From NCBI GenBank assembly GCA_021731085.1, contig JAKFYB010000013.1, forward strand, positions 88,125-152,124: a DNA stretch of 64,000 bases. Direction: 5' to 3'. The notes under the pieces were generated by a model that did no database searches, had not been told where the DNA came from, and saw nothing but the letters and a program-made list of their open reading frames with translations. The first letter of the stretch is position 1. Each line of letters begins with the position of its first letter. Source of the DNA: Dehalococcoidia bacterium (GTDB lineage: Bacteria; Chloroflexota; Dehalococcoidia; DSTF01; JACRBR01). Of the stretch, positions 3,461-43,162 are shown one piece after another. The position numbers were made by a program, and so were the translations under genes.

Positions 3461-3969
3461 GTGGGTCTCCCCCTGCCGCCCCGCCACCGCGACTTGGTTA
3501 TTGTCAACGGGCGGATCTGCCTTGTCAAGCGGCGCTGCGCCCACCGCCAATTCAGGATCACTCATCACAGAAATGGTATCGCACCTGCTTTGCATCACGC
3601 CGCGGGCGCGTGCTCCGGCCCGAGGGCCATCGGCCGCTAGGACATCCCAGGCCATTGGAAGCATCATCCCCGCGGAGGCATCCCACGAACTGCGACGTCA
3701 GCGCAAGCACCGAGGAAAGACGCCACATTGATCGTTTCCACAACCCAGACAACCAATTCAATCAAACCGCAGCTTCAGCCCGCGCCCGCAGCCACGACAC
3801 CCCCGGTCGCACCAGATTCAAAACGACCTCGCATCCGGAATACACGCGAAAACAACTAAACAATCAAAGGCCTCGGAGCCAGAGTGGAAACAGCAAAACT
3901 GCCAAACGAATTCCCGCCCGTCCTCTATGCTCCATCGTCCGTCTTCCATCCTCACGTCATACTGCGACC

Positions 3970-5340
3970 ATGCCAGCAATAACGATCATAGGACTCGGTC
4001 CCGGTGACGCCTCGCTCCTCACCGTCGAAGCGCGCGACACCCTCGCCACAGCTTCGGAAGTCTGGCTGCGCACCAGCCGGCACCCAACTGTGGCTGGCCT
4101 CCCCACCGGCCCAAAGTACAACTCCTTCGATGAGATATACGAGCGCGAACCCACCTTCGATGCTGTCTACGCAGCCATCGTCGAGCGCGTCCTCGAACTG
4201 GCAACGAGGCCGGAAGGCGTCGCCTATGCCGTCCCCGGCCACCCGATGTTCGGCGAGTCAACCGTACGCGCCATCCTCCTGCAGGCCACCGAACGCAGCC
4301 TCGACGTGCGCATCATCGCCGGCGTCAGCTTCCTTGACACCATCGCCTCCGCCCTCGGCGTCGACCCCCTCACCGACGGCCTCCTGGTGCTCGACGCGCT
4401 CGCGCTCGGCGACCGCAGCCGCATGCTCGTCCCGCAACGCCCTACCGTCATCGCCCAAGTGTACGACCAGAACGCCGCATCGCTGGCAAAGCTCGCCCTG
4501 CTGGAGGCCTATCCGCCGGAACATCCGGTGCGCGTCGTGACAGCGACCGGCACGAACGACCAGCGCATCATCGCAACAAAAATCGCCGTCCTCGACCACG
4601 ACGCAGCCGCCTTCGACCACCTCGCCACGCTGTACGTCCCGCCACTCGCCCTCATCGACGACACGCGTTCGTTCGAAGGCCTGCGGCGCGTCGTCGCCCA
4701 GCTCCGCAACCCCGACGGTGGCTGTCCGTGGGATCTCGAACAGACCCACGAGACGTTGAAGCGCTACCTCCTCGAAGAGGCCTACGAAGCGCTCGACGCT
4801 CTCGACAGCGGCGACCCGCACAAGCTCGCCGAAGAGCTCGGCGACCTGACGATGCAGGTCCTGCTGCACGCGCAGGTTGCCGAGGACAACGACGAGTTCG
4901 TTATCGAAGACGTACTGCGCGAAATCTCAACAAAGCTCATCCGCCGTCACCCCCACGTCTTCGCCGACACGCGGGTCGAAGGCGCAGACGAAGTCCTCCG
5001 CAACTGGGAGGCCCTCAAGAAAGCCGAGCGCGCGGGCAACCAAGAGTCGCCGCTAGACCACGTCCCCAAAGCGATGCCCGCGCTCGCGCAAGCACAGTCG
5101 CTCCAGTCCCGAGCGTCGAAAGCGAACCTCGGGCCAACACCGCTTGCCGCCGACGCCCTAACCCGCGCCCTCGCAGACCTAACATCAACAACCGACGCCC
5201 CGACAGCCGAAGCCCTCGGCGACCTCCTCTTCGGCATCGTCGCCCTCGCCCGCACCCACAGCCTCGACGCAGAAGAAGCCCTCCGCATGACGATCCGGCG
5301 GTTCAGGGATGCGGTTGAAGGGGAAGAAGCGCACTTGTAG
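3970..5340 (+). CDS. mazG: YabN-like fusion: tetrapyrrole-methylase-like domain + MazG nucleoside triphosphate pyrophosphohydrolase
   Basis: N-terminal ITIIGLGPGD methylase-fold motif. C-terminal MazG EEAYEALDA..ELGDL..RRHPHVF motifs. ATG at 3970 is in-frame inside the longer track ORF. Confidence 0.8.
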   Translation: MPAITIIGLGPGDASLLTVEARDTLATASEVWLRTSRHPTVAGLPTGPKYNSFDEIYEREPTFDAVYAAIVERVLELATRPEGVAYAVPGHPMFGESTVRAILLQATERSLDVRIIAGVSFLDTIASALGVDPLTDGLLVLDALALGDRSRMLVPQRPTVIAQVYDQNAASLAKLALLEAYPPEHPVRVVTATGTNDQRIIATKIAVLDHDAAAFDHLATLYVPPLALIDDTRSFEGLRRVVAQLRNPDGGCPWDLEQTHETLKRYLLEEAYEALDALDSGDPHKLAEELGDLTMQVLLHAQVAEDNDEFVIEDVLREISTKLIRRHPHVFADTRVEGADEVLRNWEALKKAERAGNQESPLDHVPKAMPALAQAQSLQSRASKANLGPTPLAADALTRALADLTSTTDAPTAEALGDLLFGIVALARTHSLDAEEALRMTIRRFRDAVEGEEAHL

Positions 5341-5885: not shown

Positions 5886-6872
5886 TCACCGCAGCGACGT
5901 TGCGTACTTCATCGCTGGCCGCAGATCGTCGACGTGGGTGCGCTCGTGCATCCAGAACCACTGGATGTACTCGATCATCGGGCGCTCGTGCGGCTCGGGC
6001 ATCCAGGGCATGAACAACACTTCGCGCACATGCTTGGGCTTGAGTTCCGCCAGCAGCAGCATCGTCCCGTGCCGCATCGATAGATACTCCTCGATCAGCG
6101 CGTTGACAGTTGAGACTTTGCGTTCCGCGAGCCGTTCGGCGTTTCCCGCATGTACGTCGGGCCACTGCGCCACCTTGCCCGTCTCGACCAGGCTCCGCAG
6201 ATGCCTCTGGAACACCCAGTCACCCGTCGCGATGTGCGCCAGCAAGTCGCGATGCGTCCACCCCTGCGTCAATGAAGGCAGCTCCCACATGACGGGGTCA
6301 ACGCTATGGACCACGTACAGCACGTTGTCCGGAGACAACTGCTCGACGGCGGGCTCCAGCTCTGGCAAGAACTTGAGCTTCGGCGCCGCCCAGTTCATCC
6401 GCAGCGCGCGCTTCACATCCGCCGCATGCAGTCGGTCGTGGTACCCGAGCCAGATCCGCTGACGCACAGAGTTGTGCTCGTCGCCATACGCCGGGAGGCC
6501 GAGAGCGAGGTGCCGCTTTTCGAGCAGCTCGTACAGCCCCAGCAGAAGCTTCCGCCGGCTCACCATTTCTGCGCGTAGCTCCGGGACCGGCCGTCCGCGT
6601 CCGCGCTCGATGGCACGCTTTCGGGCCGCTTTCGCCTCCTCAGGCGACACCGGCTTCTTCGCTGCTTCCGACTCGCCCTTCAGCAGCCCTTGCGCCGCGA
6701 CAGCCCACGCCTGGTCGGCGCCGGCGACGTGCGCGAGCAGTTCGTGCAGCGTGCGATCGCCATACGGGATCTGCCGTTCCCACTGCTCCGAATCGACCGC
6801 ATCCAGCGCTGCCTCAAACTCATCGCGAGCATGGTGCATGTCGAGCACGGCGTCGTGGACATAGGCTTCCAT
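5886..6872 (-). CDS. DinB/YfiT-like (maleylpyruvate isomerase N-terminal domain-like) metalloprotein
   Basis: 328 aa with His-containing helix motifs (LLAHVAGADQAW, LLAHIATGDWVFQRH) typical of the DinB_2 superfamily. Confidence 0.5.
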   Translation of the reverse strand: MEAYVHDAVLDMHHARDEFEAALDAVDSEQWERQIPYGDRTLHELLAHVAGADQAWAVAAQGLLKGESEAAKKPVSPEEAKAARKRAIERGRGRPVPELRAEMVSRRKLLLGLYELLEKRHLALGLPAYGDEHNSVRQRIWLGYHDRLHAADVKRALRMNWAAPKLKFLPELEPAVEQLSPDNVLYVVHSVDPVMWELPSLTQGWTHRDLLAHIATGDWVFQRHLRSLVETGKVAQWPDVHAGNAERLAERKVSTVNALIEEYLSMRHGTMLLLAELKPKHVREVLFMPWMPEPHERPMIEYIQWFWMHERTHVDDLRPAMKYATSLR

Positions 6873-7005
6873 TTCACCAGTGTAGACCGCTCACACGGTT
6901 CAGACTTCAAGATCGGCGTTGGGCCAGCGCTAGACAAGAAAGCGGCCGACGCGTTGTCGTGGCGGTGGCATATTGCTATCAATAGGACAGAGGAAGGATC
7001 CCCAT

Positions 7006-7242
7006 ATGAGCCCGACGGATCAGCAGCTTCAAGACGGCCTACAGGCCTTCATCAACAACGCCGTCGCCCCCTCCGCTGGCGAAGTAGCCGTCGCCGTCGA
7101 TCACGGAGTCGTCACGCTCACCGGCCGCGTGTCAACAAACACGCAGCGAACGGCCATCCGCGACCTCGTCGGCGCAACGCGCGGCGTCCAGCACGTCTTC
7201 TACGCGATCGAGGTCGGTATCGTCACGCAGATTCACGCCTAG
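7006..7242 (+). CDS. BON domain protein (OsmY-like)
   Basis: VAVDHGVVTLTGRVSTNTQRTAIRDLVGATRGVQHV matches the BON domain. ATG 7006 preceded by AGGAAGGA RBS; the track ORF starts at TTG 6973. Confidence 0.6.
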   Translation: MSPTDQQLQDGLQAFINNAVAPSAGEVAVAVDHGVVTLTGRVSTNTQRTAIRDLVGATRGVQHVFYAIEVGIVTQIHA

Positions 7243-7380
7243 GATCGAATTGTCCGCCTGAGGCCGATCTTACGTTCCGCGTGGTTCATTCGTCTCATAG
7301 CCCATACCCCACATCTGTGATACCAATCTGCCCGTAGATGCCAATCTACGCAAACCCCTATCGGGTACGGAGATACAGGC

Positions 7381-8928
7381 TTGTTCAAGAAGATCCTTGT
7401 CGCCAACCGCGGCGAAATCGCGCTGCGCGTCATGCGCACCTGCCGCGAGATGGGCATCAAAACCGTCGCCGTCTACTCGACGGTCGACCGGAACATGCTG
7501 CACGTCCGCTTCGCCGACGAGGCATACCTCATCGGCGAAGGTCCGCCGCTCGAAAGCTACCTGAACTACCAGAAGATCCTCGAGGTCGCAAAGAAGGCCG
7601 GCGTTGATGCCGTCCACCCCGGCTACGGCTTCCTCAGTGAGCGCACGGAGTTCGCGGAAGCATGCGAGGCCGCTGGTATCACCTTTATCGGCCCCAAGCC
7701 CGAAGCCGTCATTCACCTCGGCGACAAGGTCAATGCCCGCCGCACGATGATCGCCGCCGGCGTCCCCGTGGTGCCCGGCACAGAAGGCCGCGTCGAAGCC
7801 GACGAAGCCGTCCGCCAGGCGCCCAACATCGGCTTCCCGTTGATGATCAAGGCGTCGGCCGGAGGCGGCGGCAAGGGCATCCGGCTCGTCAAGTCGGCCG
7901 ATGAAATCGAGAATGCCGTGAAGGTCGCCTCCAGCGAAGCGCTCTCGTCGTTCGGCGATGGCGGCGTCTTTCTCGAGCGCTATCTCTCGCCTGTCCGCCA
8001 CGTCGAGATCCAGGTGCTCGGCGACAAGCATGGCAACGTCGTCGCGCTCGGCGAGCGCGAGTGCTCCGTCCAGCGCCGCCATCAGAAGCTGCTCGAGGAA
8101 TCGCCATCGCCCGTCCTCAAGCCTGAAACGCGGACGAAGATGATGGAGGCCGGCGTCGCCGCGGCGAAGGCGTCCGGCTACTACAACGCTGGCACTGTCG
8201 AGTTCCTGCTTGACCCAACGACGCAGGAGTTCTTCTTCCTCGAGGTGAACACTCGTTTGCAGGTGGAACACCCAGTGACGGAGTGGATCACTGGCCGCGA
8301 CCTTGTCCGCGATCAGATCCGCATCGCAGCGGGCGAGCCGTTGGGCTTCACGCAGGACGACGTGCAGTTCCGCGGCCACGCGATCGAGTGTCGCATCGCC
8401 GCCGAGGATCCGTACAACAACTATCTGCCGTCGCTCGGCCGTATCGACTTCGTACAGGAGCCGCTCGGCCCCGGCGTGCGCATCGACAGCAGCATCTTCA
8501 GCGGCATCGAGATCCCGTACTACTACGACCCGATGCTCGCCAAGCTTATCTGCTGGGCGGAGGACCGCACCGCCGCGATCGCCCGCATGAAGCGCGCCCT
8601 TCGGGAGTACGTAATCCTCGGCGTGAAGACGAACATTCCGTTCCACCTTCAGCTGCTCGACGACGAGCGCTTCATCAATGGCGAAGTGCATACAGGCTTC
8701 CTAGACAGCGACTTCAAGATGGTCGAACCGGAGCACAATCCAACAACCGATGAGATCGCCTTGCTCGTCGCGGCGGTCATGTCGCACGAGCGGCGCCAGC
8801 GTAATGGTGCGCAACCTGCCGTCATCGTCGGACCATCACAACAGTGGCGTGAGGCCGGCCGCGACCGGCAGATCGCCAGCCACACGGGTAAGTCACAGGG
8901 GAACCAATGGCGGCGAAGTACCGGCTGA
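7381..8928 (+). CDS. accC: biotin carboxylase (acetyl/acyl-CoA carboxylase subunit)
   Basis: KILVANRGEIALRV..., ATP-grasp motifs, EMNTRLQVEHPVTE; TTG start with GGAGA RBS. Confidence 0.85.
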   Translation: MFKKILVANRGEIALRVMRTCREMGIKTVAVYSTVDRNMLHVRFADEAYLIGEGPPLESYLNYQKILEVAKKAGVDAVHPGYGFLSERTEFAEACEAAGITFIGPKPEAVIHLGDKVNARRTMIAAGVPVVPGTEGRVEADEAVRQAPNIGFPLMIKASAGGGGKGIRLVKSADEIENAVKVASSEALSSFGDGGVFLERYLSPVRHVEIQVLGDKHGNVVALGERECSVQRRHQKLLEESPSPVLKPETRTKMMEAGVAAAKASGYYNAGTVEFLLDPTTQEFFFLEVNTRLQVEHPVTEWITGRDLVRDQIRIAAGEPLGFTQDDVQFRGHAIECRIAAEDPYNNYLPSLGRIDFVQEPLGPGVRIDSSIFSGIEIPYYYDPMLAKLICWAEDRTAAIARMKRALREYVILGVKTNIPFHLQLLDDERFINGEVHTGFLDSDFKMVEPEHNPTTDEIALLVAAVMSHERRQRNGAQPAVIVGPSQQWREAGRDRQIASHTGKSQGNQWRRSTG

Positions 8929-9419
8929 GGCTCGGCGACGAGCTCCACGAGATCGAAATAGAGCCGGATCACGCCGGAGGCCTGCGCGTGAAGATCGGCG
9001 ATGCCGAAGCACACACGGTCAGTCTTGAACGCATCAACGAAGGCGCGCGCTATTCGTTGATTGTCGACGGGCGACCGTACGACATCTTCGCCGAAGAAGG
9101 CCCGACCGACTACCACATTCTCGTCGATGGCGAGCGCGTAGTCATCGGAACGCAGACGGGCGCGAAGGGCAAGGGCGGCGCCGACTTCGACCTCGATGCG
9201 GGCGGCGAGTGGGTGCTCAAGTCGCCGATGGCCGGCGTCGTCCGCGAAGTGCGCGTTGCGGCCGACGATGAGGTCGAGGAGGGCGCAACGCTCGTCGTCG
9301 TCGAGGCGATGAAGATGCAGAACGAACTCCACGCCCGCCGCGCTGGCCAGGTAAAGGCCGTCTACGTCACCGTCGGCCAACGCGTCGACCAGGGCACGCC
9401 GTTGCTGGTGCTGGTGTAG
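8907..9419 (+). CDS. biotin carboxyl carrier / biotinyl-domain protein
   Basis: C-terminal EAMKMQNEL biotinyl-lysine motif; start overlaps the accC 3' end. Confidence 0.75.
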   Translation: MAAKYRLRLGDELHEIEIEPDHAGGLRVKIGDAEAHTVSLERINEGARYSLIVDGRPYDIFAEEGPTDYHILVDGERVVIGTQTGAKGKGGADFDLDAGGEWVLKSPMAGVVREVRVAADDEVEEGATLVVVEAMKMQNELHARRAGQVKAVYVTVGQRVDQGTPLLVLV

Positions 9420-9450
9420 GCGCCGGGCGACCATCTGCCACACTGCCCCG

Positions 9451-10131
9451 ATGAACATCACCCGCGGCCGCACGGCCGACACGCTCACGCGCGACGAACT
9501 GCGCGCGCTCGCTGCGCCATACGCGGGCGTTACTCTCGACATCGGCGCGGGCGATGGTGCGTGGGCGTACCGGTACGGTGGCGCGCATCCCGATCGCTTC
9601 GTAATCGCGCTCGATCCGGTTCGCGAGAATATGCGCGAGTGGTCGGCGAAAGCAGCGAAGAAGCCCGACAAGGGTGGCCTGCCGAACGCACTCTTCGTCG
9701 TCGCGAGCGTCGAATCGCCGCCGGAGGAACTGCGAGGCGTCGCCGACGAGGTCTTCGTCACGCTGCCGTGGGGGTCGCTGATGCGCGGCCTGATTCTGGG
9801 CGACGGTGGCATGCTTGCGGCGATCGCGTCGTTCGCGAAAGGCGGCGCATCGATCCGCATCGTGCTGAACACGCGCATCTTCGACGACCCGGTGCCGATA
9901 GACGTGCGAGATTTGCCCGAAGTCACGCCCGAGTACGTCGTCACGACGCTCGTCCCGCTGTTCGAAGAGCACGGCATCCGTGTGGAAAACAGCCGCTGGA
10001 TGGACGCCGACGAGGTCGCGGCGATCGGCACCAGGTGGGCGAAACGCCTCTCCCATCGCGCCCCACCGCGCTCGGTTTTGATTGAGGCTAGGGTTCGATC
10101 CATTGAGGACGACAGCGGTGCCGAAAGCTGA
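9451..10131 (+). CDS. KamB/NpmA-family 16S rRNA (adenine1408-N1)-methyltransferase homologue
   Basis: 226 aa. Colinear similarity to NpmA/KamB as recalled: LDIGAGDG SAM motif, IALDPVRENM, SAKAAKKPDKGGLPNALFVVASVES, TLPWGSLM, TRWAKRL. Both A1408-stacking Trp of NpmA (FPWG, SLWAKRL) are conserved. Confidence 0.7.
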   Translation: MNITRGRTADTLTRDELRALAAPYAGVTLDIGAGDGAWAYRYGGAHPDRFVIALDPVRENMREWSAKAAKKPDKGGLPNALFVVASVESPPEELRGVADEVFVTLPWGSLMRGLILGDGGMLAAIASFAKGGASIRIVLNTRIFDDPVPIDVRDLPEVTPEYVVTTLVPLFEEHGIRVENSRWMDADEVAAIGTRWAKRLSHRAPPRSVLIEARVRSIEDDSGAES

Positions 10132-10920
10132 TTGGCTGATACCCTTCGATTGATGCTCACCGAACTCCCTCCCGGCCAGCGCGAGATTCTTCGTCCGCTG
10201 TACGCGAACTTTGGGCTGCGGCTGCATGGCCTGATCGAAGCTGTGTTCTCCGGCGAGTTCGGGCGCGCCTGGGTCGATGACCTCGCGCATCCATCGATCG
10301 CGCTGGCGAACATCGACTTCTGGCTCGTCGGCGGCAATCCGATCGCCTCGCTGGCCGACGACGCGCTGCGGTTCGTGCCGAAGGGCACGATCGTGACCGA
10401 TGGCTCGCAGGCGTGGCCTGCCCTGGTGCGCACCACGCTTTCGGGCCGCATCGTCGAGCGCACCCGCACCGGCTTCGCGACGCCACCACCGGAGGCGTGG
10501 AACCGTGATCGTCTCCGAGGGATGGCCGCCGCCCTCCCAAAGGGCTTTGAAATCCGCCGGATCGACCGCACGAACATCGCGTCGTTCCTTGTTGTCGCCG
10601 AAGACTTCGCTTCGAACTGGCGGAGCGTCGATGCGTTTCTTGAGCACGGGCTTGGGTTTGGCGTGTTTGATGCGACGCATTGTGTGTCCGGGTGCTCGTC
10701 GTTCTCGTCCGCCAACGGCAAGCTCGAGATCGAGATCGACACTGACCCGGCGTATCTGCGATACGGTCTCGCGCGCGCCGTGGCCGCCCATCTCATCGAC
10801 CACTGCCTCGACAACGGCATCGAGCCGTGCTGGGACGCGCACAATCCGGAGTCGGCAGCGCTGGCGCAACAGCTCGGGTTCACGAAGCCGTACCCGTACA
10901 CGGTGTTCGTCGTGAGCTAG
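10132..10920 (+). CDS. GNAT family N-acetyltransferase (PF12746-like C-terminal GNAT)
   Basis: C-terminal CVSGCSSFS..EIEIDTDPAYLRYGLA..CWDAHNPESAALAQQLGF. Starts at TTG immediately after the stop of the upstream gene (or ATG 10150). Confidence 0.6.
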   Translation: MADTLRLMLTELPPGQREILRPLYANFGLRLHGLIEAVFSGEFGRAWVDDLAHPSIALANIDFWLVGGNPIASLADDALRFVPKGTIVTDGSQAWPALVRTTLSGRIVERTRTGFATPPPEAWNRDRLRGMAAALPKGFEIRRIDRTNIASFLVVAEDFASNWRSVDAFLEHGLGFGVFDATHCVSGCSSFSSANGKLEIEIDTDPAYLRYGLARAVAAHLIDHCLDNGIEPCWDAHNPESAALAQQLGFTKPYPYTVFVVS

Positions 10921-11024
10921 CTCTCTTCTAGTTTCTGTCGACGTGACTCTGTAGAATCCCTCTGTTATGGACACGCAACATTCCGCAGCCGAACCAACGA
11001 CGGTTTCAGCACCGGAGGATTCGC

Positions 11025-11507
11025 GTGACCATTTCGATTCGCCCACTCAACTTCACTGACGACGCTGCGGCATGCGACTCCGTGCTCGCATCGCTTCCCT
11101 ACTTCTTCGGCGACTCTGACGGACAGCGTGACTGTGCGGTCGCCGTGCGTTCGCAGGCGGGATTCGTCGCCACCGTCGATGGCACGGTCGCCGGGTTCAT
11201 CACGCTGCTGCTGCATCTGCCTGACATCGGCGGCTCGACGGAGATCACGTGGATGGCCGTCCGCGCCGACCATCGCCGTCACGGACTCGGCACCATGCTC
11301 ATCGATGCGGCGGTGCAGCGCTGCCGCGAGGATGGCGTGCCGATGCTCAGCGTCCTGACGCTCGGTCCAAGCGTGTCGGAAGAGGCCGCTGACAACTATG
11401 AAGGCACGCGGGCGTTCTATCGCCGGATGGGCTTCGTGCCGCTGCGCGAGTTGGGCCTGCGAGATTGGAACGACGCTTCGGCGCTGATTCTCGCGCGAGC
11501 GGTCTAG
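11025..11507 (+). CDS. GNAT family N-acetyltransferase
   Basis: WMAVRADHRRHGLGTMLIDAAV acetyl-CoA binding motif; GTG start. Confidence 0.7.
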   Translation: MTISIRPLNFTDDAAACDSVLASLPYFFGDSDGQRDCAVAVRSQAGFVATVDGTVAGFITLLLHLPDIGGSTEITWMAVRADHRRHGLGTMLIDAAVQRCREDGVPMLSVLTLGPSVSEEAADNYEGTRAFYRRMGFVPLRELGLRDWNDASALILARAV

Positions 11508-11510
11508 CTT

Positions 11511-11852
11511 TCAGTGGAGCATGGGGTCGTGGCCCCAATTCATGAGGGAGTACCGCCAACGGCTCGCGCGGAAGTCGCCGCGCGGGCGCTGCGCCAGGTG
11601 CCGTCGCGCGTACGCGATGACCTTCCGCATGTGCGCAAGGTCGTCGTCCGTGTGGTCGACGCCCTTTGTGCGCAACAGCTTGACGATTCGGCGACCCGAA
11701 CGGTGGCCGACCGACTCGCCAGCCGCGTCCCTCCCCCAGCCGACGCTCCACGACTCGTCGGTCTCGAGCCAGCGCTCCAGTCGCGACGCCCGCATGTTGA
11801 CGACGGCCCGGAACTCGGCCACGATGTCTCGCTCGGCCCTGCGTTTTGCCAT
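11511..11852 (-). CDS. DUF3140-like small protein
   Basis: ~113 aa basic protein; start ATG 11852 (alternative GTG 11867). Confidence 0.4.
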   Translation of the reverse strand: MAKRRAERDIVAEFRAVVNMRASRLERWLETDESWSVGWGRDAAGESVGHRSGRRIVKLLRTKGVDHTDDDLAHMRKVIAYARRHLAQRPRGDFRASRWRYSLMNWGHDPMLH

Positions 11853-12004
11853 TGCCGACAACCTCACGGAGATCTACGCGCATCAGTCAGTTCGAGATCA
11901 AAGCCGCCAGTCACATCCGGTCCAGAAGCGATAGCTTACAAAGCTCAGAGCGCGCGCCCGTCCATCGTGAGAGAATGGTGCCAGGCAGCGATAGGAGAAA
12001 TGCG

Positions 12005-12352
12005 ATGGCGAAGATCACCGGACTCCAGTACATCATCCCGGTGCGCGACCTCGAGCGGGCGGTGAAATTCTACGCCGACGCGTTCGGCGTGGAGGAGATC
12101 TTTCGCGCGGAGCAGATCGTGTTTATGGCGGCGCCAGGCGGCGACTCGTCGTTCGGGCTGCTGGTCGACGCCGAGCACGCGGGTGGCGGGCCGATGAACG
12201 TCGGTCTCCACGTCGACCACGCGATCGAGCCCGATGACGCCGTCCGCGATGTCGAGGCAGCCGGCGGCACGATCATCGAACGCGGCGAGCACGCGCCGGG
12301 CGTGCCGTTCGCGCGCATCGCGGATCCGGACGGGAATGTCCTGGAGATCTGA
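12005..12352 (+). CDS. VOC/glyoxalase-bleomycin resistance family protein
   Basis: MAKITGLQYIIPVRDLERAVKFYADAFG.. typical VOC N-terminus; GGAGA RBS 7 nt upstream of ATG 12005. Confidence 0.7.
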   Translation: MAKITGLQYIIPVRDLERAVKFYADAFGVEEIFRAEQIVFMAAPGGDSSFGLLVDAEHAGGGPMNVGLHVDHAIEPDDAVRDVEAAGGTIIERGEHAPGVPFARIADPDGNVLEI

Positions 12353-12384
12353 TCGAGGTTGACTTCGGCTGCTACGATCGTCGC

Positions 12385-12975
12385 ATGGACGCGACCGAGA
12401 ATCTTCCCGACTGCGACCTGAATCACACGGCGCGCCAACGTTGCAGTTCTTGGCAACCCGACGAGCCAACCGACTATGGCGTCGAAGAGGCAACTCCAAA
12501 GGGTTCGAGCCGACGCTTCAGAGGATGCATCTTCGTCCCTCTCGCGGTACTTGGTGTTCTGGTGATGCTGGTGACATTCGTACCTCTCGCCTTATGGGCC
12601 GGGGACTTGGCTGGTTTAGACATCTTTCCAAGCGCACCTCAACTGCCAGCCTACGCGCATCCGCCAAGTGTCGAAAAAGAGGATGAAGTCTCAAGTCCCT
12701 GTAACCTTGACGGCCGAGAGCTCTGCCGTCACGTGTACTTCCATCTGCCAGAAGATTGGGCGACGATTCGCGACGATGTCGCGCAGAACCTTACGGATCG
12801 GGGTTGGACGATCCGCGTGCTACCTCGTGCTAGTGAGGACTACCTGTCTGCTAGTTCGCCAACTGGCGAGACCTGCCTCCGGTACTCCGCGCTGGAACCT
12901 GGCCCCTTCGCCGACCGCCCTCTGACGTACAAGCAAATCCTAGCCGTGGTCGTCAGCCCTTGCTCCTTTGACTAA
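12385..12975 (+). CDS. hypothetical membrane-anchored protein
   Basis: 196 aa, one TM helix (VPLAVLGVLVMLVTFVPLALWAG), no recognisable domain; locally lower G+C than neighbours. Confidence 0.35.
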   Translation: MDATENLPDCDLNHTARQRCSSWQPDEPTDYGVEEATPKGSSRRFRGCIFVPLAVLGVLVMLVTFVPLALWAGDLAGLDIFPSAPQLPAYAHPPSVEKEDEVSSPCNLDGRELCRHVYFHLPEDWATIRDDVAQNLTDRGWTIRVLPRASEDYLSASSPTGETCLRYSALEPGPFADRPLTYKQILAVVVSPCSFD

Positions 12976-13027
12976 GGCCCACTCCTGACATCCGACGTCA
13001 GTACGCCATCGACGGCGCGAACACCCG

Positions 13028-13036
13028 TGCTAGAAT
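13028..13036 (+). promoter_or_regulatory. extended -10-like element gTGcTAGAAT upstream of uvrA
   Basis: TGnTAGAAT ~95 bp upstream of the uvrA ATG; pattern only. Confidence 0.25.
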
Positions 13037-13129
13037 GGCGTTCCGACTGCGATAGCGCGCACTCTCGCGGCCGGCGAGGGCGCGGCGAGCAGCGCCCCGA
13101 CACGAACCTCTACTCAGGAGCCGATACTG

Positions 13130-16100
13130 ATGCCTCTCGACGCGATCGTCGTCAAGGGCGCCCGCGAGCATAACCTCAAGGACATCGACGTTACGATCCC
13201 GCGCGACAAGCTCGTCGTGATCACGGGGCTGTCGGGGTCGGGGAAGTCGTCGCTCGCCTTCGACACGATCTACGCCGAGGGTCAGCGCCGATACGTCGAG
13301 TCGCTCTCAGCGTATGCTCGCCAGTTCCTGGGGCAGATGGAGAAGCCCGACGTCGACTACATCGAGGGTCTTTCGCCCGCGATCTCGATCGACCAGAAGG
13401 GCGCAAGCCACAACCCGCGCTCGACCGTTGGCACCGTAACGGAGATCTACGACTACCTACGGCTGCTGTACGCGCGCGCCGGCACGCCGCACTGCCCCAC
13501 CTGCGGGCGCCCGATCGAGCGGCAGACAGTGCAACAGATCGTCGATGCGATCCTGGGTATCGAGGCCGGCAATCGGCTGATGCTGCTTGCGCCGATCATC
13601 AAGGATCGCAAAGGCGAGCACCTGCACGTCTTCGAGGACGCGCGGCGGGCGGGCTTTGTGCGCGTGCGCGTCGATGGGCGCATCCGCGATCTCGAAGAGG
13701 AGATCAACCTCAACAAGAAGACCAAGCACTCGATCGAGGTCGTCGTCGACCGCCTGATCACCGAAGGTCCCGATGGCGCAGCGGACGGTAGCGCATCGAG
13801 TGCGAGCCGCCTCGCCGAGAGCGTCGAGCAGGCGCTGAAGTTGGGCACGGGTACGGTGCTTGTGGTCATCGAGCCGCCCGTCGAGGCGCAACCGCAGCGA
13901 TCGAAGGCGAAGCAGATCGCGCCCGCCGTCGAAGAACGGCTGTATTCGGAGCACTACTCCTGCGCGTTCGACGGCACGTCGATCGGGGAGCTGGCGCCTC
14001 GGAACTTCAGCTTTAACTCGCCGCACGGCGCATGTCCCGACTGCACCGGGCTCGGCCTGAAGATGCAGCTCGACCCGGCGCTCGTGATCCCGAACCACAG
14101 CCTCTCGATCAAGGACGGCGCGATCGCGCCCTGGCAGCGCGCGGCGGCGACGAACACCTGGTACTTCCGGATGGTCGAGGCGGTGGCGAAGAAGCACGGC
14201 TTCAAGCTCAATGTCCCGATCAAGGACATGAAGAAGGCCGACCTCGACATCATCCTCTACGGCGACGAAGGCAAGATCGAACTCAAGTACCAGACGTCGG
14301 GCGGGCACACGAACCGCTGGGACACGAAGTTCGAGGGCGTGCTCACGAACATGGAGCGGCGCTACCGCGAGACCGACAGCGACTACGTCCGCGGCGAGAT
14401 CGAGCGCTACATGGCGGCGGTACCGTGTTCGACCTGCGGCGGCGCGCGGTTGCGACCGGAGACGCTCGGCGTAACGGTGGCGGACAAGAACATCGCCACC
14501 TTCACGCGCATGGACGTGCGCGAGGCGCTGGCATGGATCGAAGAACTGGCGGGGCCGAAGACAAAGCTCAGCGAGCGCGAGCAGATCATCGCGAAGCAGA
14601 TCATCAAGGAAATCCGCGAGCGCCTGACGTTCATGAACGATGTCGGCCTCGACTACCTGACGCTCGACCGCGCGGCCGGCACGCTGTCCGGCGGCGAGGC
14701 GCAGCGCATTCGGCTGGCGACGCAGATCGGTTCGAGCCTGATGGGCGTGTTGTACGTCTGCGACGAGCCGAGCATCGGCTTGCATCCCGCTGATGACGAG
14801 CGCCTGATCAAGACGCTCATCCGCCTGCGCGACATCGGCAACACCGTGATCATCGTCGAGCACGACGAGTCGATGATGCGCGCCGCCGACCACATCGTCG
14901 ACATGGGGCCGGGCGCGGGCGAACACGGCGGCCATGTCGTTGCGCAGGGCACGATCGACGACATCATGGCGAGCGAGGGCTCGATGACGGGCGCGTATCT
15001 CTCGGGCCGGAAGCAGGTGCCGCTTCCGGAAATGCGCCGACCTGGCAACGGCAAGTTCATCGAGATACGCGGCGCGCGCGAGAACAACCTCAAGAACGTT
15101 GATGTCGATATCCCGCTCGGCGAGTTCGTCGTGATCACGGGCGTTTCGGGGTCGGGGAAGTCGTCGCTGATCAACGAGATCCTCTACAAGAAGCTGGCGC
15201 AAGACCTCAACGGCTCGCGCGACAAGCCGGGCGCTGTGGACTCCGTACGCGGGATGATCTTCATCGACAAGGTCGTCGACATCGACCAGTCGCCCATCGG
15301 GCGCACGCCGCGCTCGAATCCGGCGACGTATACGGGCGTCTTCACGCCGATCCGGGAGATGTTCGCGAACGTCCCCGAAGCGCGGCTGCGTGGGTATACA
15401 GCGGGGCGCTTCTCTTTCAACGTGAAGGGCGGCCGCTGCGAGAACTGCGCGGGCGACGGCTACATCGAGATCGAGATGCACTTCCTGCCGGACGTAACCG
15501 TGCCGTGCGAGGTGTGCAGGGGCAGACGTTACAACCGCGAGGCGCTCGAGATCCTCTGGAAGGGAAAGAGCATCGCCGACGTGCTCGATATGACGGTGAG
15601 CGAGGCGTGCGCGTTCTTCGACGCGATCCCGCAGCTCAAGCGGAAGCTCGAGACGCTGCGCGACGTCGGCCTCGGGTACATCCGCATGGGCCAGCCGGCG
15701 ACGACGCTTTCGGGCGGCGAGGCGCAGCGCGTGAAGCTGTCGACGGAGCTTTCGAAGCGCAGCACGGGCAAGACGCTGTACATCCTCGACGAGCCGACGA
15801 CGGGCCTCTCGTTCGAAGACACGCGCAAGCTGATGGAAGTGTTGCAGCAGCTCGTCGACGGCGGTAACACCGTCGTCGTTATCGAGCATCACATGGACGT
15901 CGTGAAGAACGCCGACCACATCATCGACCTCGGGCCCGCCGGCGGCGACCGTGGCGGGCGGTTGATTGCGACCGGCACGCCGGAGGAGGTCGCGCTCGTC
16001 GATGAAAGCGCGACGGCGGAGTACCTGCGAAGGATTCTCCCAAAGGTGCGCATCGCGGCGGTCAAGAAGAATGGGCGGAAGCCAGCGACAACGGTCGCTT

Positions 16101-16210
16101 CGACGAATGGCGCGAAGGCAACGGCATCGAAGAACGGCGCTTCGGCGAACGGGGCGAAGCCGAAGGTCGCTGTGAAGAAGAAGGCCGTCGCTGCGCGATC
16201 GAAGCGCTGA
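13130..16210 (+). CDS. uvrA: excinuclease ABC subunit A
   Basis: Two ABC ATPase modules (GLSGSGKSS.., GVSGSGKSS..), Zn-finger Cys pairs. 1026 aa with a Lys/Ala-rich C-terminal tail. Confidence 0.95.
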
Positions 16211-19279: not shown

Positions 19280-20380
19280 TTAGGCTGGCATACATTCGGC
19301 GCAGTCGAGATCCTCCATCGCTGCGCCGCGACGCCTGATCCACGCCTTCTGCAGCGCGACGCCGCGCTCGTTCGCGGCATCCATCGAACCGACGGCAATC
19401 ACGGTGTAGACGTTGCAGTACAGGATCGCCTTGCGGTAGTCGTACAGCGCTTCGTCGAAGCTGTAGTTCTTAGCGCCGCCGTCGACGATGATGTCGTGCC
19501 AGTTCTGCAGCAGACTCATTTCGTTCGCCTTGCGGACATCAGGTTCCAGCGAGCTGATGATGAAATACGCCACGTCGAAGATGCCGCGACCGCGCGACGA
19601 GATCTGCCAGTCGATGGCCGCAACCGGTGAGCCGTCCTTGTGGTCGAAGAAGAGGTTGTCGAGGCGGTAATCGCCGTGGATGATCGTTCGGGGCTTCGGT
19701 TCGTAGTGGTTCAGCAGGTCGATGATCTTGTCCTGCATGCGCTCGCCAGCGCTGTGCTGGTACGGCGACAGCGCGCCGCCGAAGAACTCGCAGTACGGTC
19801 CCCACGCCTGCTGGTAGGAGTTCTGTGCCGACTGATGCACGGGAGCATTGACGAACGGCATCCAGTCGAGCTTGTCAAGCTTTGGACTCTCCCACCACGC
19901 CGCGTGGTGCTTCGCCAACACCGCGATCGCCGCTTCGGCCTGCGCGATCGTGCAGCCAGCCACTTCGTCTCCTGGCGTCGCGCCGAGCGACATGTCCTCA
20001 AGCAGCAACAGGTGCTCGTCGTTGGCGACATCCATCACACGGTAGTAGCACCTCGGCACACGAATCTCGATCGACGACGCGATCTCCTCGTAGAAACGAG
20101 CCTCGCGTTCGTAGAATTGGAACAGGTTGCCGATCTCGCGATTGCCATCGTTGGTCGTCGGCATTTTCACGACCATCGAGGGAGGTGCGCTCGGAGCGCC
20201 GTCGTACTTGAGTTGAAGGCGAGCAAGCTGTCCGAACAGCCCCGCGCCAGCGCCAATACCCTGCGGCGTCACCGCAGTCACGCGGCCGCCGCCGAGCACA
20301 CCACTCTCAGCAAGCGCGCTTGTCAGCCACTCGGACGTGATCTCTTCGGGACTTCGCGGAACATTCGAACCCATGGTCAC
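19280..20380 (-). CDS. phosphotransferase-family kinase (APH/CHK/EcKL-like)
   Basis: 366 aa; Brenner-like HGDYRLDNLFF and DWQ motifs; AGGAG RBS. Confidence 0.75.
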   Translation of the reverse strand: MTMGSNVPRSPEEITSEWLTSALAESGVLGGGRVTAVTPQGIGAGAGLFGQLARLQLKYDGAPSAPPSMVVKMPTTNDGNREIGNLFQFYEREARFYEEIASSIEIRVPRCYYRVMDVANDEHLLLLEDMSLGATPGDEVAGCTIAQAEAAIAVLAKHHAAWWESPKLDKLDWMPFVNAPVHQSAQNSYQQAWGPYCEFFGGALSPYQHSAGERMQDKIIDLLNHYEPKPRTIIHGDYRLDNLFFDHKDGSPVAAIDWQISSRGRGIFDVAYFIISSLEPDVRKANEMSLLQNWHDIIVDGGAKNYSFDEALYDYRKAILYCNVYTVIAVGSMDAANERGVALQKAWIRRRGAAMEDLDCAECMPA

Positions 20381-20387
20381 TCCTGCA

Positions 20388-21485
20388 CTATGCGGGCATC
20401 ATTTCGATCGCGTTCAGCTCTTCGACGGCCGCGGCACCACGCTGCAGCCACGCTGTCCATAGCGCCATCCCTCGCTCATTCGCGGCGTCTAGCGTTCCGA
20501 CTGCGATGACGATGTACACGAACTGGAACAGAGCTCCGAGACGGTAGTCGTCCCAACACTGCTCGAATGCATAGCCCGTCACGCCATTCGTCACCAGTGT
20601 GTCGTGATAGAGCCGCACCAGCTCGCGTTCATGCTCGCGCCGCAGTTCAGACGGTAGGCCGCCACACAGCAGGTACGCGATGTCGAACGTCCCTCGGCCG
20701 AGCGTGGAAATCTGCCAGTCCGCGACGGACAACCGCAGCTCGCCGCCCTCGTCCGAGAAGAACAGGTTGTCGACCCGGAAGTCGCCGTGGCTGATCGTAA
20801 GTGGCGGCTGTGCAAACGCCGTTTGTATCTTTACGACGTTTTCGCCGATGCGCTCGCATGCGGATTTTGCTTCAGGCGATAGCGTCTCGCCGAACATATC
20901 GAGAAACGGCCGCCAAGCCTGCGCATACGCACCGGCCGCAACCTGCTGGACGGGCGCGTTGATGGCGGGCATCCATTCGCCAATCTTCGCGAGGCGCGGG
21001 CTCTCCCACCATGTGGCGTGAAACCGCGCGATGTCCTCCACCGCGACGCGAGCCTGCGCGACGGAGCATCCCGCCGCCTGATCGCCGACGCACGCGGGGG
21101 CGAGATCTTCGATCAGCAGGATGTACTGCTGCTTTTCTTGATCCATATCGCTGTAGTAGTGGCGCGGCGCGCGCAGTTCGACGTCATGCGCTATCTCGCG
21201 ATAAAAGCGAATCTCACGATGATAGAAGTCGAACAGGTTCCCGATCTGCCGCCCGCCCTCGGACGCGCCGGGCATCTTCGCGATGATCGATGAAGGCGCG
21301 CCGACCTCCGCGCGGTCGTACGTGGGCCGGATCTGCGCAAGCTGTCCGATGAAGCCCGAGCCTTCGCCGATCGTGCACACATCAATCGACGTGACCGTTG
21401 CGTGCTTGAGCACCCCACTACTCTTAAGGGCAGTCGTCAGCCATGCGGCTGTAAGTTCGCCCGGATTCTGAGGCATCGCACCCAT
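20388..21485 (-). CDS. phosphotransferase-family kinase (APH/CHK/EcKL-like), tandem paralogue
   Basis: 366 aa from ATG 21485 (GAGGAG RBS); HGDFRVDNLFF..DWQ; colinear with the downstream paralogue. The track ORF extends upstream into Gly/Arg-rich non-coding-looking sequence. Confidence 0.75.
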   Translation of the reverse strand: MGAMPQNPGELTAAWLTTALKSSGVLKHATVTSIDVCTIGEGSGFIGQLAQIRPTYDRAEVGAPSSIIAKMPGASEGGRQIGNLFDFYHREIRFYREIAHDVELRAPRHYYSDMDQEKQQYILLIEDLAPACVGDQAAGCSVAQARVAVEDIARFHATWWESPRLAKIGEWMPAINAPVQQVAAGAYAQAWRPFLDMFGETLSPEAKSACERIGENVVKIQTAFAQPPLTISHGDFRVDNLFFSDEGGELRLSVADWQISTLGRGTFDIAYLLCGGLPSELRREHERELVRLYHDTLVTNGVTGYAFEQCWDDYRLGALFQFVYIVIAVGTLDAANERGMALWTAWLQRGAAAVEELNAIEMMPA

Positions 21486-21502
21486 AGCAACTCCTCTGAC
21501 TG

Positions 21503-22744: not shown

Positions 22745-22824
22745 ACATACCTCCCACGGGCGTGCGCGGATTCTACCAGCCGTCTGCGATGCGCGGCAGG
22801 CTAGCGCCGCGTACAGTACCGCCC

Positions 22825-37959: not shown

Positions 37960-38211
37960 GGCGCGATTGTAGCCAAGATGTGGATGGCTCCACGTTGACA
38001 CGCGCTTCGACTGAGGATTTCGCAACGTCAGCGCTCGCAGGCAACAGAAGCTGCAATTCTCGCTTGAGCCAGCGATGGCCGTGGCGGATGATTCAAACGC
38101 GCGTCGCTCCGAGCGTCACGCTCCTTGACCTGACCGCCGGTAGCAAGCGACAGGCATCAACCGAAGCCAGCGGACAGGTCTGAAGACCTGCCCATGCGGA
38201 AGGAAGACCAC

Positions 38212-42768: not shown

Positions 42769-43162
42769 CACGCTGTCATTGTCATCCGCGGAGCACTCCG
42801 GCACATCGAACGGAAGAGGCATGGGAAGGCCGACTTGCGATGGATGGCCGTCCTCCGCCTGAAGGCGGTTGTGACGTACACGAGGGTGCTGCTGGGCCAG
42901 CGGATCTGCGCCAGCCCCGTACTAATCGGCTCGACGACGCCGGCGGCAAGCGACGCTCCGTCATCTTGGCAGGAACACACACCGGTCCGAAGCTGCTGAC
43001 GGCGAACGGCTCACGGCGATCTCCGCCTAAAGACGGAGGCGGCGGAGCGGGGCGAACGCGACACTTCGACTGGAGGTGATCGATATGGGTTCTGCTACAT
43101 TGGTGCCTGAGACGCTCGCGGCGATTGGCGTCCGTCGAAGCGGACCACGGAGGCAACCGACG

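Follow-up and report, generated by a model that had tools for sequence, protein, structure and literature searches.

The window, i.e., the whole 64-kb stretch of DNA that was analysed, carries on its + strand a string of genes for biotin carboxylase (AccC), biotin carboxyl carrier protein (BCCP), a homologue of the Kam/NpmA-family 16S rRNA methyltransferases, here called Kam, and two GNAT acetyltransferases (GNAT1 and GNAT2), with UvrA further downstream (Table 1); the other neighbours of Kam in the window are DUF3140, glyoxalase, DinB, HAD and kinase genes, and an Rfam survey of the window detected neither an rRNA nor a riboswitch. The order accC-BCCP-Kam-GNAT is the one given in a first-pass annotation of this DNA. 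BCCP overlaps accC by 22 nt, and its stop codon TAG ends at 9419, so that the 31 nt placed by that annotation between BCCP and the start of Kam are exact.

Table 1. Coordinates of Kam and of the genes flanking it in the window
Feature	Positions	Strand	Basis
accC, biotin carboxylase (context)	7381..8928	+	TIGR00514, 644.5 bits vs cutoff 626.5; Pfam Biotin_carb_N/CPSase_L_D2/Biotin_carb_C
Biotin carboxyl carrier protein, BCCP (context)	8907..9419	+	Pfam Biotin_lipoyl, 3.6e-18
BCCP-Kam spacer, 31 nt	9420..9450	+	sequence
Kam/NpmA-family 16S rRNA (adenine1408-N1) methyltransferase homologue, 226 aa	9451..10131	+	PF24675, PDB matches, AF2 model
GNAT1, PamZ/ZmaR/3G3S-type tandem-GNAT N-acetyltransferase	10153..10920	+	PF12746
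GNAT2, small GNAT acetyltransferase with a single domain, frequently third in the block	11025..11507	+	Pfam Acetyltransf_1/7/10
uvrA, conserved anchor on the downstream side of the Kam block	13130..16210	+	position in related loci

Regarding the gene boundaries, the Kam ORF opens with ATG and closes with TGA at 10129-10131; this start is supported by the conservation of M1, which is at least 90% in 36 aligned homologues, whose consensus start is MIxVRGK. The coding strand is the + strand, because the Pfam matches of the region fall on it. A 750-aa antisense ORF (8649-10901, - strand) that covers the Kam region was rejected as a high-GC artefact; gene picking based on GC3 had chosen this ORF in preference to Kam. 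As for GNAT1, its mechanical ORF can start as early as TTG 10132, and for this ORF the earlier statement that the GNAT gene follows Kam with no gap is correct; it fails for the likely start, ATG 10153, from which the three closest homologues, all of 255 aa, align. The true gap between Kam and GNAT1 is thus probably 21 nt, still an operon-like spacing. A consensus scan of 6800-13300 found no promoter- or terminator-like sites on the + strand between 7967 and 13008; it did no better than on shuffled sequences and is uninformative for this phylum, and a TG-TAGAAT-like element that precedes GNAT2 and uvrA lacked significance.

Kam matched the Pfam profile PF24675 (NpmA) with 234 bits (gathering cutoff 60, E = 1.5e-69), its residues 4-213 aligning on positions 3-212 of the 214 of the model, and phmmer gave full-length matches to every solved Kam enzyme, from 1.6e-43 to 4e-24; CacKam (1.6e-43), Kmr (3e-40), KamB (2e-36), NpmB1 (5e-33) and NpmA (1e-30) are among these PDB matches, and identity to the characterised enzymes of the family is 30-39%. 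The AF2 model had a pLDDT of 91.5 and a pTM of 0.88, with predicted N-terminal strands E2-5 and E8-11, and it displays the fold of the family: a class I SAM-methyltransferase with an N-terminal β-hairpin and extended β5/6 and β6/7 linkers. With Foldseek, its best 19 matches were all Kam structures (TM 0.73-0.88), including KamB (TM 0.88/0.93, rmsd 1.9 Å) and NpmA (TM 0.88/0.91), and generic class I methyltransferases came only after them, with TM ~0.5 and E ~1e-9. The KamB/NpmA-family assignment made at first pass is hence backed by sequence, profile and predicted-fold evidence, and the protein encoded at 9451-10131 belongs over its full length to the Kam/NpmA 16S rRNA (m1A1408) methyltransferase family. 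Orthology to a named allele was rejected, because Kam scores far under all the allele-level cutoffs of NCBIfam: 166 against 350 for KamB, 122 against 305 for WarA, 115 against 460 for NpmB, and 104 against 470 for NpmA. Judged by its sequence, Kam adds a new member to an already known resistance family and does not represent a new type of system, and its finding leaves the understanding of how such enzymes work unchanged.

The motifs that the first-pass annotation had named as shared with NpmA and KamB are found in Kam at nearly the same residue numbers as in NpmA (D30, D55, E88, P106, W107, R153, R207), in agreement with the colinearity that it had noted. The GxGDG SAM motif corresponds to G32-A-G-D-G36, and the KKPxKGGLxN block to K70-K-P-D-K-G-G-L-P-N79 (KKPSKGGLSN in NpmA); the first Trp occurs in L-P106-W107-G-S, and the second in T194-R-W196-A-K-R-L200, the counterpart of SLWAKRL in NpmA. 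W107 of NpmA is one of the two Trp residues that position the flipped A1408 in the NpmA-30S structure (PDB 4OX9).

The residues found by experiment to be important in NpmA, KamB and CacKam are all in Kam, with the exception of position 66, which is Ala, and they are 89-100% conserved among its 120 closest homologues; present and conserved are D30, G32xGDG36, D55, K67/K70/K71/K74, E88, P106-W107, D146 and R153, along with T194, W196, K198-R199, R203 and R207 in the β6/7 region. Passages of PMC4705659 on the family give SAM-binding roles to D30, GxGxG, D55, E88 and the β6/7 Ser/Thr (S195 in NpmA, T191 in KamB); when Kam and these homologues are counted together (121 sequences), D30 is kept in 120, G32, G34, D35, G36 and E88 in 121 each, T194 in 119, and D55 in 109, with Glu in 11 others. 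The same passages state that W197 of NpmA positions the flipped A1408, and the A1408-positioning Trp residues are nearly invariant, with W107 in 121/121 and W196 in 120/121. Of the β2/3-linker lysines with which NpmA docks on the 16S rRNA, K66, K67, K70 and K71, Kam retains three, plus K74, and K67, K70, K71 and K74 are Lys or Arg in every homologue; position 66 is Ala in Kam and in 114/121 sequences. Finally, the flipped A1408 is stabilised by R207 of NpmA, by two β6/7-linker arginines in KamB, and by E146 and R153 in the β5/6 linker of NpmA, according to the mechanistic passages of PMC4705659; R199, R203, R207, D146 and R153 of Kam are conserved, in a variable linker where one-to-one equivalence with NpmA or KamB cannot be fixed by alignment and varies from member to member of the family. 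As described in that source, in the parts on mechanism, members of the Kam family differ from each other in how they work, and for this reason the level and spectrum of any resistance conferred by Kam cannot be predicted.

Comparison with related loci, drawn from MAGs of groundwater and other environmental metagenomes, revealed a backbone shared by many MAGs, accC-BCCP-[infC-rpmI-rplT]-Kam-[GNAT1-GNAT2]-...-uvrA. In 14 related loci uvrA follows Kam at ~0.8-3.2 kb, and infC and/or rplT, from the infC-rpmI-rplT operon, are immediately upstream of Kam and on the same strand in 11 of the 27 Kam loci, at gaps of ~140-900 nt by tblastn estimates; the infC operon is absent from the 64-kb window. In the relatives, either infC-rpmI-rplT or other genes stand between BCCP and Kam, or the two are on different contigs; in assembly GCA_038914035.1, one contig carries the accC-BCCP block and another the Kam-GNAT1...UvrA block. 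On both counts, the adjacency of accC-BCCP to Kam is incidental and has no functional meaning, so that from the gene string first proposed the GNAT stands as a meaningful neighbour and the biotin genes do not. Most Kam loci were located via Kam itself, which entails an ascertainment bias; a metagenome scan anchored on BCCP, independent of Kam, yielded 80 loci, of which only 3 were close relatives, and a Kam-independent sample of genomes was then taken from BCCP homologues on long contigs (the L106 assembly was traced to L110). Kam was present in 3 of the 4 genomes that were sampled independently of it.

The meaningful recurrent neighbour of Kam is GNAT1, not accC-BCCP. GNAT1 matched PF12746 at 1.1e-53 (182.8 bits, cutoff 26), and the PDB sequences 3G3S (2.7e-28) and PamZ (7B3A, 2e-11); its AF2 model (pLDDT 95.4) was matched by Foldseek to 3G3S with TM 0.84 and to PamZ with TM 0.81, the next structures being at or below 0.6. 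GNAT1 thus combines the PF12746 match with the predicted tandem fold, a pseudo-GNAT plus a GNAT domain, that marks the PamZ/ZmaR type. PamZ and ZmaR N-acetylate cationic antibiotics and thereby inactivate them; paenilamicin inhibits the ribosome (PMC9054821). Besides the window, GNAT1 is beside or near Kam in 8 loci, directly adjacent in 7 and at 1.3 kb in the other, with spacings in the relatives from an 11-nt overlap to ~145 nt (gene calls and tblastn estimates). Both loci found via GNAT1 itself (L111 and L112) have Kam too, and at least 9 of 36 GNAT1 matches are on contigs equal in size to Kam-carrying contigs, 8 of these from the Kam match list and one being L004; the pair is not obligatory, since 18 of the 27 Kam loci are without GNAT1. 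GNAT2, whose similarity to RimI is only sub-threshold, comes after Kam or GNAT1 in L004, L005, L008, L108, L109, L111 and L112. A Kam-GNAT fusion protein, P0245, also exists, as a singleton on a contig of 2.2 kb; neither GNAT1 nor GNAT2 is specifically similar to its GNAT domain (E 1.1 and 3.7), and the fusion supports the Kam-GNAT link at the superfamily level only.

Regarding inheritance, Kam has a dN/dS of 0.16-0.18 against its closest orthologues and resembles its neighbours in composition (GC 0.661, GC3 0.80, codon-usage cosine 0.92); across the relatives its identity correlates with that of AccC (rho 0.86, p 0.0015) and of BCCP (rho 0.85, p 0.0009), with Kam 57-78% identical where AccC is 78-90%, i.e., evolving much faster than its housekeeping neighbours. 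Purifying selection acts on Kam, its synteny is conserved, and it diverges in step with the flanking genes. Given these traits and its neighbour-like composition, it is a chromosomal gene native to an environmental Chloroflexota clade and inherited vertically in it. The suggestion of an intrinsic modification or of self-protection in this organism therefore divides: composition, selection, synteny and co-divergence uphold the intrinsic part, and protection of a producer from its own product is not supported: in the 64 kb, a Pfam survey of selected ORFs detected no biosynthesis genes for aminoglycosides and none of the NRPS or PKS type, and neither a 2-deoxy-scyllo-inosose synthase nor an aminotransferase/glycosyltransferase set was found. 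The same type of survey found no transposase or recombinase near Kam; the only mobile-element gene found in the window is an integrase at 57.4 kb, ~47 kb from Kam. This integrase adjoins a tRNA-Pro gene, in a segment of lower GC.

Taken together, the data are probably best explained by an active m1A1408 methyltransferase which, with the GNAT, would form an intrinsic resistance module of target methylation and drug acetylation in a non-producer; we infer the catalytic activity of Kam, its A1408 target, the resistance phenotype, the co-transcription, and the GNAT substrate as follows. Kam would methylate N1 of A1408, in helix 44 of the 16S rRNA, in the assembled 30S subunit and with S-adenosylmethionine, the latter held by D30, G32xGDG36, D55, E88 and T194. 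On the model of the NpmA-30S complex, the basic β2/3 linker (K67, K70, K71, K74) would dock on the tertiary surface of the 16S rRNA, and A1408 would be flipped out and held by R199, R203 and R207 of the β6/7 linker, with the support of D146 and R153 of the β5/6 linker; the flipped base would be placed between W107 and W196. The m1A1408 so formed is expected to block the binding of aminoglycosides of the kanamycin, neomycin and apramycin types. Kam is probably co-transcribed with GNAT1, and often also with GNAT2, and Kam and GNAT1 may act as a two-layer defence against cationic ribosome-targeting antibiotics from other environmental microbes. Kam would have come to lie directly behind accC-BCCP incidentally, when a local rearrangement took infC-rpmI-rplT out of this site.

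A different role, in which m1A1408 or a nearby methylation is constitutive and tunes decoding as the Rsm enzymes do, resistance being only a side effect, is unlikely. It would fit the loci in which Kam comes right after infC and/or rplT, the vertical inheritance and purifying selection of the gene, and its presence in most of the genomes sampled independently of it; however, its rate of evolution exceeds that of the true housekeeping neighbours, the infC operon is missing from the window, and upon rearrangement (L110) Kam moves with genes of the antibiotic-acetyltransferase type and not with the translation genes. To our knowledge, there is no endogenous m1A1408 outside resistance contexts. 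KamB is reported to raise translational accuracy in E. coli (PMC12406665), which speaks for such a housekeeping role, but endogenous m1A1408 is unmentioned among the housekeeping decoding-centre modifications that the same paper lists. As for a producer that makes an aminoglycoside-like or polycationic compound and protects itself, as Streptoalloteichus tenebrarius does with KamB, there is the precedent that Kam enzymes were first discovered in producers (passages of PMC4705659 and PMC12406665 on their origin) and that PamZ and ZmaR, the relatives of GNAT1, are self-resistance genes within biosynthetic clusters (PMC9054821); this is very unlikely here, with no such cluster genes within the 64 kb and the same housekeeping context repeated across many MAGs.

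The divergence of Kam, at most 39% identical to any tested enzyme and under all allele-level cutoffs, together with the Ala at position 66 and with the extra domains (DUF371, GNAT) that hint at functional diversity in some family members, could also point to a paralogue that kept the fold and took another nucleotide or substrate, or lost its activity. This is highly improbable in light of the catalytic, SAM-binding and base-stacking residues, all conserved in a clade under purifying selection, and of the family-specific N-terminal extension and β5/6 and β6/7 linkers, kept in a confident model; furthermore, every tested family member of similar divergence targets A1408, as far as the passages of PMC4705659 and PMC12406665 on these enzymes go. 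Recent acquisition on a mobile element, like that of npmA on plasmids and ICEs, is effectively refuted: the one integrase that could suggest it, beside the tRNA-Pro gene, is 47 kb off in the lower-GC segment, transposases and recombinases were not found nearby, and the GC, GC3 and codon usage of Kam are native; its synteny is conserved, and it diverges together with the flanking genes.

Returning to the intrinsic methylation and acetylation module, m1A1408 gives very high-level resistance to many clinical aminoglycosides and to apramycin. Few enzymes that form it have been characterised, and eleven unique members of the m1A1408-enzyme family were counted in 2015 in a passage of PMC4705659; here, more than 120 clusters at the 90% identity level are at least 60% identical to Kam, and 626 clusters at the 50% identity level, from all taxa, match it at E <= 1e-10. 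Kam belongs to a large Chloroflexota clade that is uncharacterised, where it is a stable chromosomal trait, neither a mobile nor a producer gene; Kam enzymes of Chloroflexota did not come up in the literature searched. Should Kam prove active, it would provide a case of intrinsic protection of the decoding centre in an abundant, uncultured environmental phylum, enlarge the environmental reservoir of pan-aminoglycoside resistance, and provide a natural pair of target methylation and a drug acetyltransferase of the PamZ/ZmaR type. A bolder version, which we hold to be possible though rather doubtful, is that Kam-GNAT1 is an ancient, vertically inherited, two-enzyme ribosome-defence operon once attached to infC-rpmI-rplT, with constitutive m1A1408 directed at a broader or different set of cationic decoding-centre antibiotics; the clade might then be a large environmental reservoir that has gone unrecognised, and possibly an evolutionary source, of pan-aminoglycoside resistance of the NpmA type.

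Among the known systems, the best sequence matches are CacKam from Catenulispora acidiphila (PDB 4X1O) and Kmr from Sorangium cellulosum (PDB 4RWZ), with 37-39% identity; they have the same fold as Kam (TM 0.80-0.85), a common SAM pocket and the conserved β6/7 Trp, and like Kam they are chromosomal, in environmental bacteria outside the classical producers. They differ in phylum and by ~60% in sequence, and in CacKam the N-terminus is extended, as is the β6/7 linker, which sequesters W203; the passages of PMC4705659 on the two enzymes describe no context with the infC operon, uvrA or a PamZ-type GNAT. KamB from Streptoalloteichus tenebrarius (PDB 3MQ2), a self-resistance enzyme of a producer, is the top NCBIfam model and the closest predicted fold, and its T191 and W193 correspond to T194 and W196 of Kam; unlike KamB, whose cutoff Kam does not reach, Kam has no biosynthetic cluster near it. 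NpmA (PDB 3MTE and 4OX9), an acquired enzyme found on pARS3 of E. coli and on an ICE of C. difficile, is colinear with Kam at ~30% identity and shares the KKPxKGGLxN and WAKRL blocks and the fold, with K66 replaced by Ala in Kam; npmA is a mobile gene whose composition is foreign to that of its hosts (PMC12271512), whereas Kam is native and vertical. The closest precedent in concept is WarA of Nocardia wallacei, a remote homologue of NpmA and KamB and a Kam enzyme of a non-producer behind broad aminoglycoside resistance; Kam stays under the cutoff of its model, and WarA is actinobacterial and from one species, as described in the parts of PMC12406665 on it, whereas Kam occurs in a whole uncultured Chloroflexota clade together with a PamZ-type GNAT partner.

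As for this partner, PamZ from Paenibacillus larvae (PDB 7B3A) and ZmaR from Bacillus cereus belong to PF12746 like GNAT1, and the tandem pseudo-GNAT plus GNAT arrangement is common to PamZ and the predicted GNAT1 fold; the invariant acidic strand E192-I-E194 of GNAT1 aligns with the 'hEisvE' strand of PamZ, with an overall identity of only 21%. Unlike PamZ and ZmaR, GNAT1 is outside any biosynthetic cluster, and its pairing is with an rRNA methyltransferase instead of a prodrug or export system (PMC9054821).

The 226-residue protein Kam belongs to the Kam/NpmA family of 16S rRNA m1A1408 methyltransferases, as the first-pass annotation had proposed, and its ORF lies exactly where it had been placed. 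Pfam PF24675 (NpmA; 16S rRNA adenine(1408)-N1-methyltransferase) matches it end to end with 234 bits, where the cutoff is 60, and the solved members all match full-length: CacKam (1.6e-43), Kmr (3e-40), KamB (2e-36), NpmB1 (5e-33), NpmA (1e-30) and UncKam (4e-24); beyond this family, further PDB sequences match only at E > 0.1. The AlphaFold2 model (pLDDT 91.5, pTM 0.88) agrees: its 19 top PDB fold matches are Kam enzymes without exception, with TM 0.88/0.93 and rmsd 1.9 Å to KamB and TM 0.88/0.91 to NpmA, while generic class I methyltransferases, named in the annotation as possible better matches, come next at TM ~0.5. Identity to the characterised enzymes is 25-39%; judged by its NCBIfam scores, all below the allele cutoffs (KamB 166/350, WarA 122/305, NpmB 115/460, NpmA 104/470), Kam is not orthologous to any named allele.

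Regarding its functional residues, the GxGDG, KKPxKGGLxN, PWG and RWAKRL motifs cited in its support are all found (G32-A-G-D-G36; K70-KPDKGGLPN79; LP106-W107-GS; T194-R-W196-AKRL200). Mapping onto NpmA, with a sequence 100% identical to PDB 3P2E/3MTE as the numbered reference, gives a SAM-pocket set of D30, GxGxG, D55, E88 and the β6/7 Ser/Thr, T194; P106-W107 and the base-positioning Trp of the β6/7 linker (W196) are both kept, as are three of the four docking lysines of NpmA (K67, K70, K71), joined by K74. The β5/6 pair is D146/R153, the NpmA counterpart being E146/R153, and the β6/7 linker holds R199, R203 and R207; the roles of these positions follow Witek and Conn 2016 (PMC4705659). The mapped positions are 89-100% conserved among the 120 closest homologues and fall among the 43 invariant columns of a 36-sequence alignment. 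Kam would dock on the 30S subunit through its basic β2/3 linker, in an NpmA-like manner, flip out A1408, position this base with a Trp on either side and methylate it at N1 in a SAM-dependent reaction.

Features of the window discussed in the text
Feature	Coordinates	Strand	Remarks
TP_methylase-MazG fusion	3610-5340	+	tetrapyrrole-methylase-like; nucleotide pyrophosphohydrolase
accC	7381-8928	+	
BCCP	8907-9419	+	
Antisense ORF	8649-10901	-	750 aa, GC3 0.78
Kam	9451-10131	+	226 aa; ATG 9451, TGA 10129-10131
GNAT1	10153-10920	+	PF12746, 1.1e-53
Extended -10-like element	10950-10957		TG-TAGAAT, before GNAT2
GNAT2	11025-11507	+	small single-domain GNAT
Extended -10-like element	13028-13036		TGCTAGAAT, before uvrA
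uvrA	13130-16210	+	
EcKL/APH-family kinase	19280-20380	-	
EcKL/APH-family kinase	20388-21749	-	adjoins the preceding gene
Eis-type acetyltransferase	21503-22840	-	three domains: Acetyltransf_9 + Acetyltransf_17 + SCP2_2
Alpha/beta hydrolase (Pfam)	38194-39159	+	first of tandem pair
Second gene of tandem pair	39249-40205	+	
LuxR-type response regulator	43076-43801	+	
Sensor histidine kinase	to 49881	+	2,024 aa
tRNA-Pro(GGG)	57246-57322	-	
Tyrosine recombinase/phage-type integrase	57431-58372	+	follows tRNA-Pro(GGG)

BCCP ends at 9419, so that the spacer to Kam is the 31 nt claimed. The junction with GNAT1, described as gapless, is so for an ORF with a TTG start at 10132 abutting the Kam stop, but not for the likely ATG start: the three closest GNAT1 homologues are each 255 aa and their alignment begins at ATG 10153, so the true gap is probably 21 nt. 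As for the coding strand, a GC3-based gene picker prefers the antisense ORF opposite BCCP, Kam and GNAT1 to the real genes; it was rejected as a high-GC artefact.

Kam matches 2,397 proteins at E ≤ 1e-5 and, in a set of 1.84 billion cluster representatives, 626 clusters at 50% identity (E ≤ 1e-10); databases automatically label relatives as 16S rRNA (adenine(1408)-N(1))-methyltransferase. Its close relatives all derive from MAGs assigned to Chloroflexi, Chloroflexota or Dehalococcoidia, which came from metagenomes of groundwater and other environments. The gene is under purifying selection (dN/dS 0.16-0.18 against its two closest orthologues) and has the composition of its neighbours (GC 0.661, GC3 0.80, codon-usage cosine 0.92). 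Across loci, its identity follows that of AccC (Spearman 0.86, p 0.0015) and BCCP (Spearman 0.85, p 0.0009), which fits vertical co-inheritance with the flanking genes. Elsewhere in the family, five proteins of 357-374 aa (P0264, P0267, P0271, P0326, P0338) carry a full Kam domain followed by a C-terminal DUF371; such fusions span five separate 50%-identity clusters, one with 130 members that include the Dehalococcoidia protein HIM59801.1, and may offer a lead to a DUF371 function, possibly related to the ribosome or RNA.

The gene neighbourhood was compared in 27 Kam loci with at least 52% identity, window included, most reached via Kam and some via BCCP or GNAT1. The recurring backbone is (MazG-DinB-BON)-accC-BCCP-[infC-rpmI-rplT(-grx)]-Kam-[GNAT1][GNAT2]-(DUF3140, glyoxalase)-uvrA-DinB-HAD, and it is fullest in L108 (infC-rpmI-rplT-grx-Kam-GNAT1-GNAT2-uvrA, grx being glutaredoxin). 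Kam directly follows infC and/or rplT in 11 loci (L005-L008, L011, L012, L014, L016, L025, L026, L108), and in those that include BCCP, infC-rpmI-rplT separates it from Kam; Kam sits right behind BCCP in the window, L010 and L015. Neither infC nor rplT was found anywhere in the 64-kb window, so this core translation operon would have been relocated elsewhere in the source genome. Of four loci sampled by BCCP, independent of Kam (L026, L106, L107 and L108), L026 and L108 have Kam at the site, and L106 (AccC 89% identical) is rearranged behind BCCP; in its assembly, GCA_038914035.1, Kam-GNAT1...uvrA-DinB-HAD lies on a separate contig (L110). The accC-BCCP embedding, taken at first for a telling context, is therefore incidental; the breakpoint lies just 5' of Kam, whereas Kam and the genes 3' of it form a stable unit. 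The TP_methylase-MazG fusion is conserved 5' of accC in L023, L026, L106 and L107. Intergenic extended -10-like elements hint at own promoters for GNAT2 and uvrA, a pattern that is not significant (at least one match in 30 of 100 shuffles).

GNAT1 has as nearest solved relatives the uncharacterised 3G3S (2.7e-28) and PamZ (PDB 7B3A, 2e-11); its model (pLDDT 95.4) matches them with TM 0.84 and 0.81, after which fold matches drop to TM ≤0.6 and E ~1e-9. PamZ inactivates paenilamicin, a cationic ribosome inhibitor, by N-acetylation, and the related ZmaR acetylates zwittermicin A; these two resistance enzymes each combine a pseudo-GNAT and a GNAT domain in tandem and bind their substrate in an acidic groove (PMC9054821). 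GNAT1 itself belongs to a narrow subfamily (36 matches at E ≤ 1e-10), and at least nine of these are on contigs equal in size to Kam-bearing ones (eight from the Kam match list, one from L004). Besides the window, eight loci have GNAT1 near Kam, directly adjacent in seven and ~1.3 kb apart in L112, and 18 of the 27 lack it; both loci reached through GNAT1 (L111, where GNAT1 is only 44% identical, and L112, within the eight) also carry Kam. By gene calls, Kam-GNAT1 spacing ranges from an 11-nt overlap to ~145 nt. GNAT2 is a frequent third gene of the block. A natural fusion of Kam with a GNAT domain (Acetyltransf_3) occurs in P0245, a 369-aa singleton cluster on a 2.2 kb metagenome contig; it is 46% identical to the Kam of the window, and no specific similarity of its GNAT domain to GNAT1 or GNAT2 was found.

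Some 9-13 kb 3' of Kam lie two EcKL/APH kinases and an Eis-type acetyltransferase (NCBIfam PRK01346.1-4, 266 bits against a cutoff of 259); both L023 and L025 likewise have a kinase of this kind behind uvrA, joined in L025 by the Eis-type gene. Because Eis acetylates aminoglycosides in mycobacteria, these may be further resistance-type genes, the APH/EcKL family being very broad. Farther on, the tandem genes have near-identical N-termini, with a luciferase-like monooxygenase gene and an amidohydrolase gene next in line; behind the LuxR-type regulator comes the sensor kinase, which combines dCache, HAMP, PAS, seven GAF and HisKA_3/HATPase_c domains.

By analogy with characterised enzymes, Kam is likely an active m1A1408 methyltransferase that serves a non-producer as an intrinsic chromosomal resistance determinant, probably co-transcribed with the PamZ/ZmaR-type GNAT1; co-transcription would combine target protection with drug inactivation. 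A housekeeping modification of the decoding centre is in keeping with the linkage to the infC operon, but is unlikely, given that Kam evolves faster and travels with acetyltransferases. A neofunctionalised Kam is very improbable, with every key residue retained.

The first-pass annotation had suggested intrinsic modification or self-protection: native composition, synteny and co-divergence uphold the former, whereas a Pfam survey of ORFs selected from the whole 64 kb turned up ordinary genes of metabolism, repair, transport and signalling but none for aminoglycoside, NRPS or PKS biosynthesis, and makes self-protection of a producer improbable, if slightly less so than neofunctionalisation. The window also has no rRNA genes. 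Its sole mobile-element gene is the integrase beside tRNA-Pro (57.2-58.4 kb), in a tail where GC drops from ~0.64 to 0.56-0.60 from ~53 kb to the window end, probably an integrated element; with its distance of about 47 kb from Kam, the native composition and the co-divergence with AccC/BCCP, recent horizontal acquisition of Kam was rejected as the least probable reading.

In conclusion, chromosomal Kam enzymes outside classical producers were known before (Kmr, CacKam, UncKam and WarA), so that such a gene is not in itself surprising. In the literature searched, no report of the Kam family in Chloroflexota was found, only a mention in passing of uncharacterised Chloroflexi homologues of the other family, m7G1405. 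To these known systems, the present analysis adds how large the clade is, that it inherits the gene vertically, that the gene was ancestrally attached to the infC operon, and that it is paired with a GNAT of PamZ/ZmaR type.
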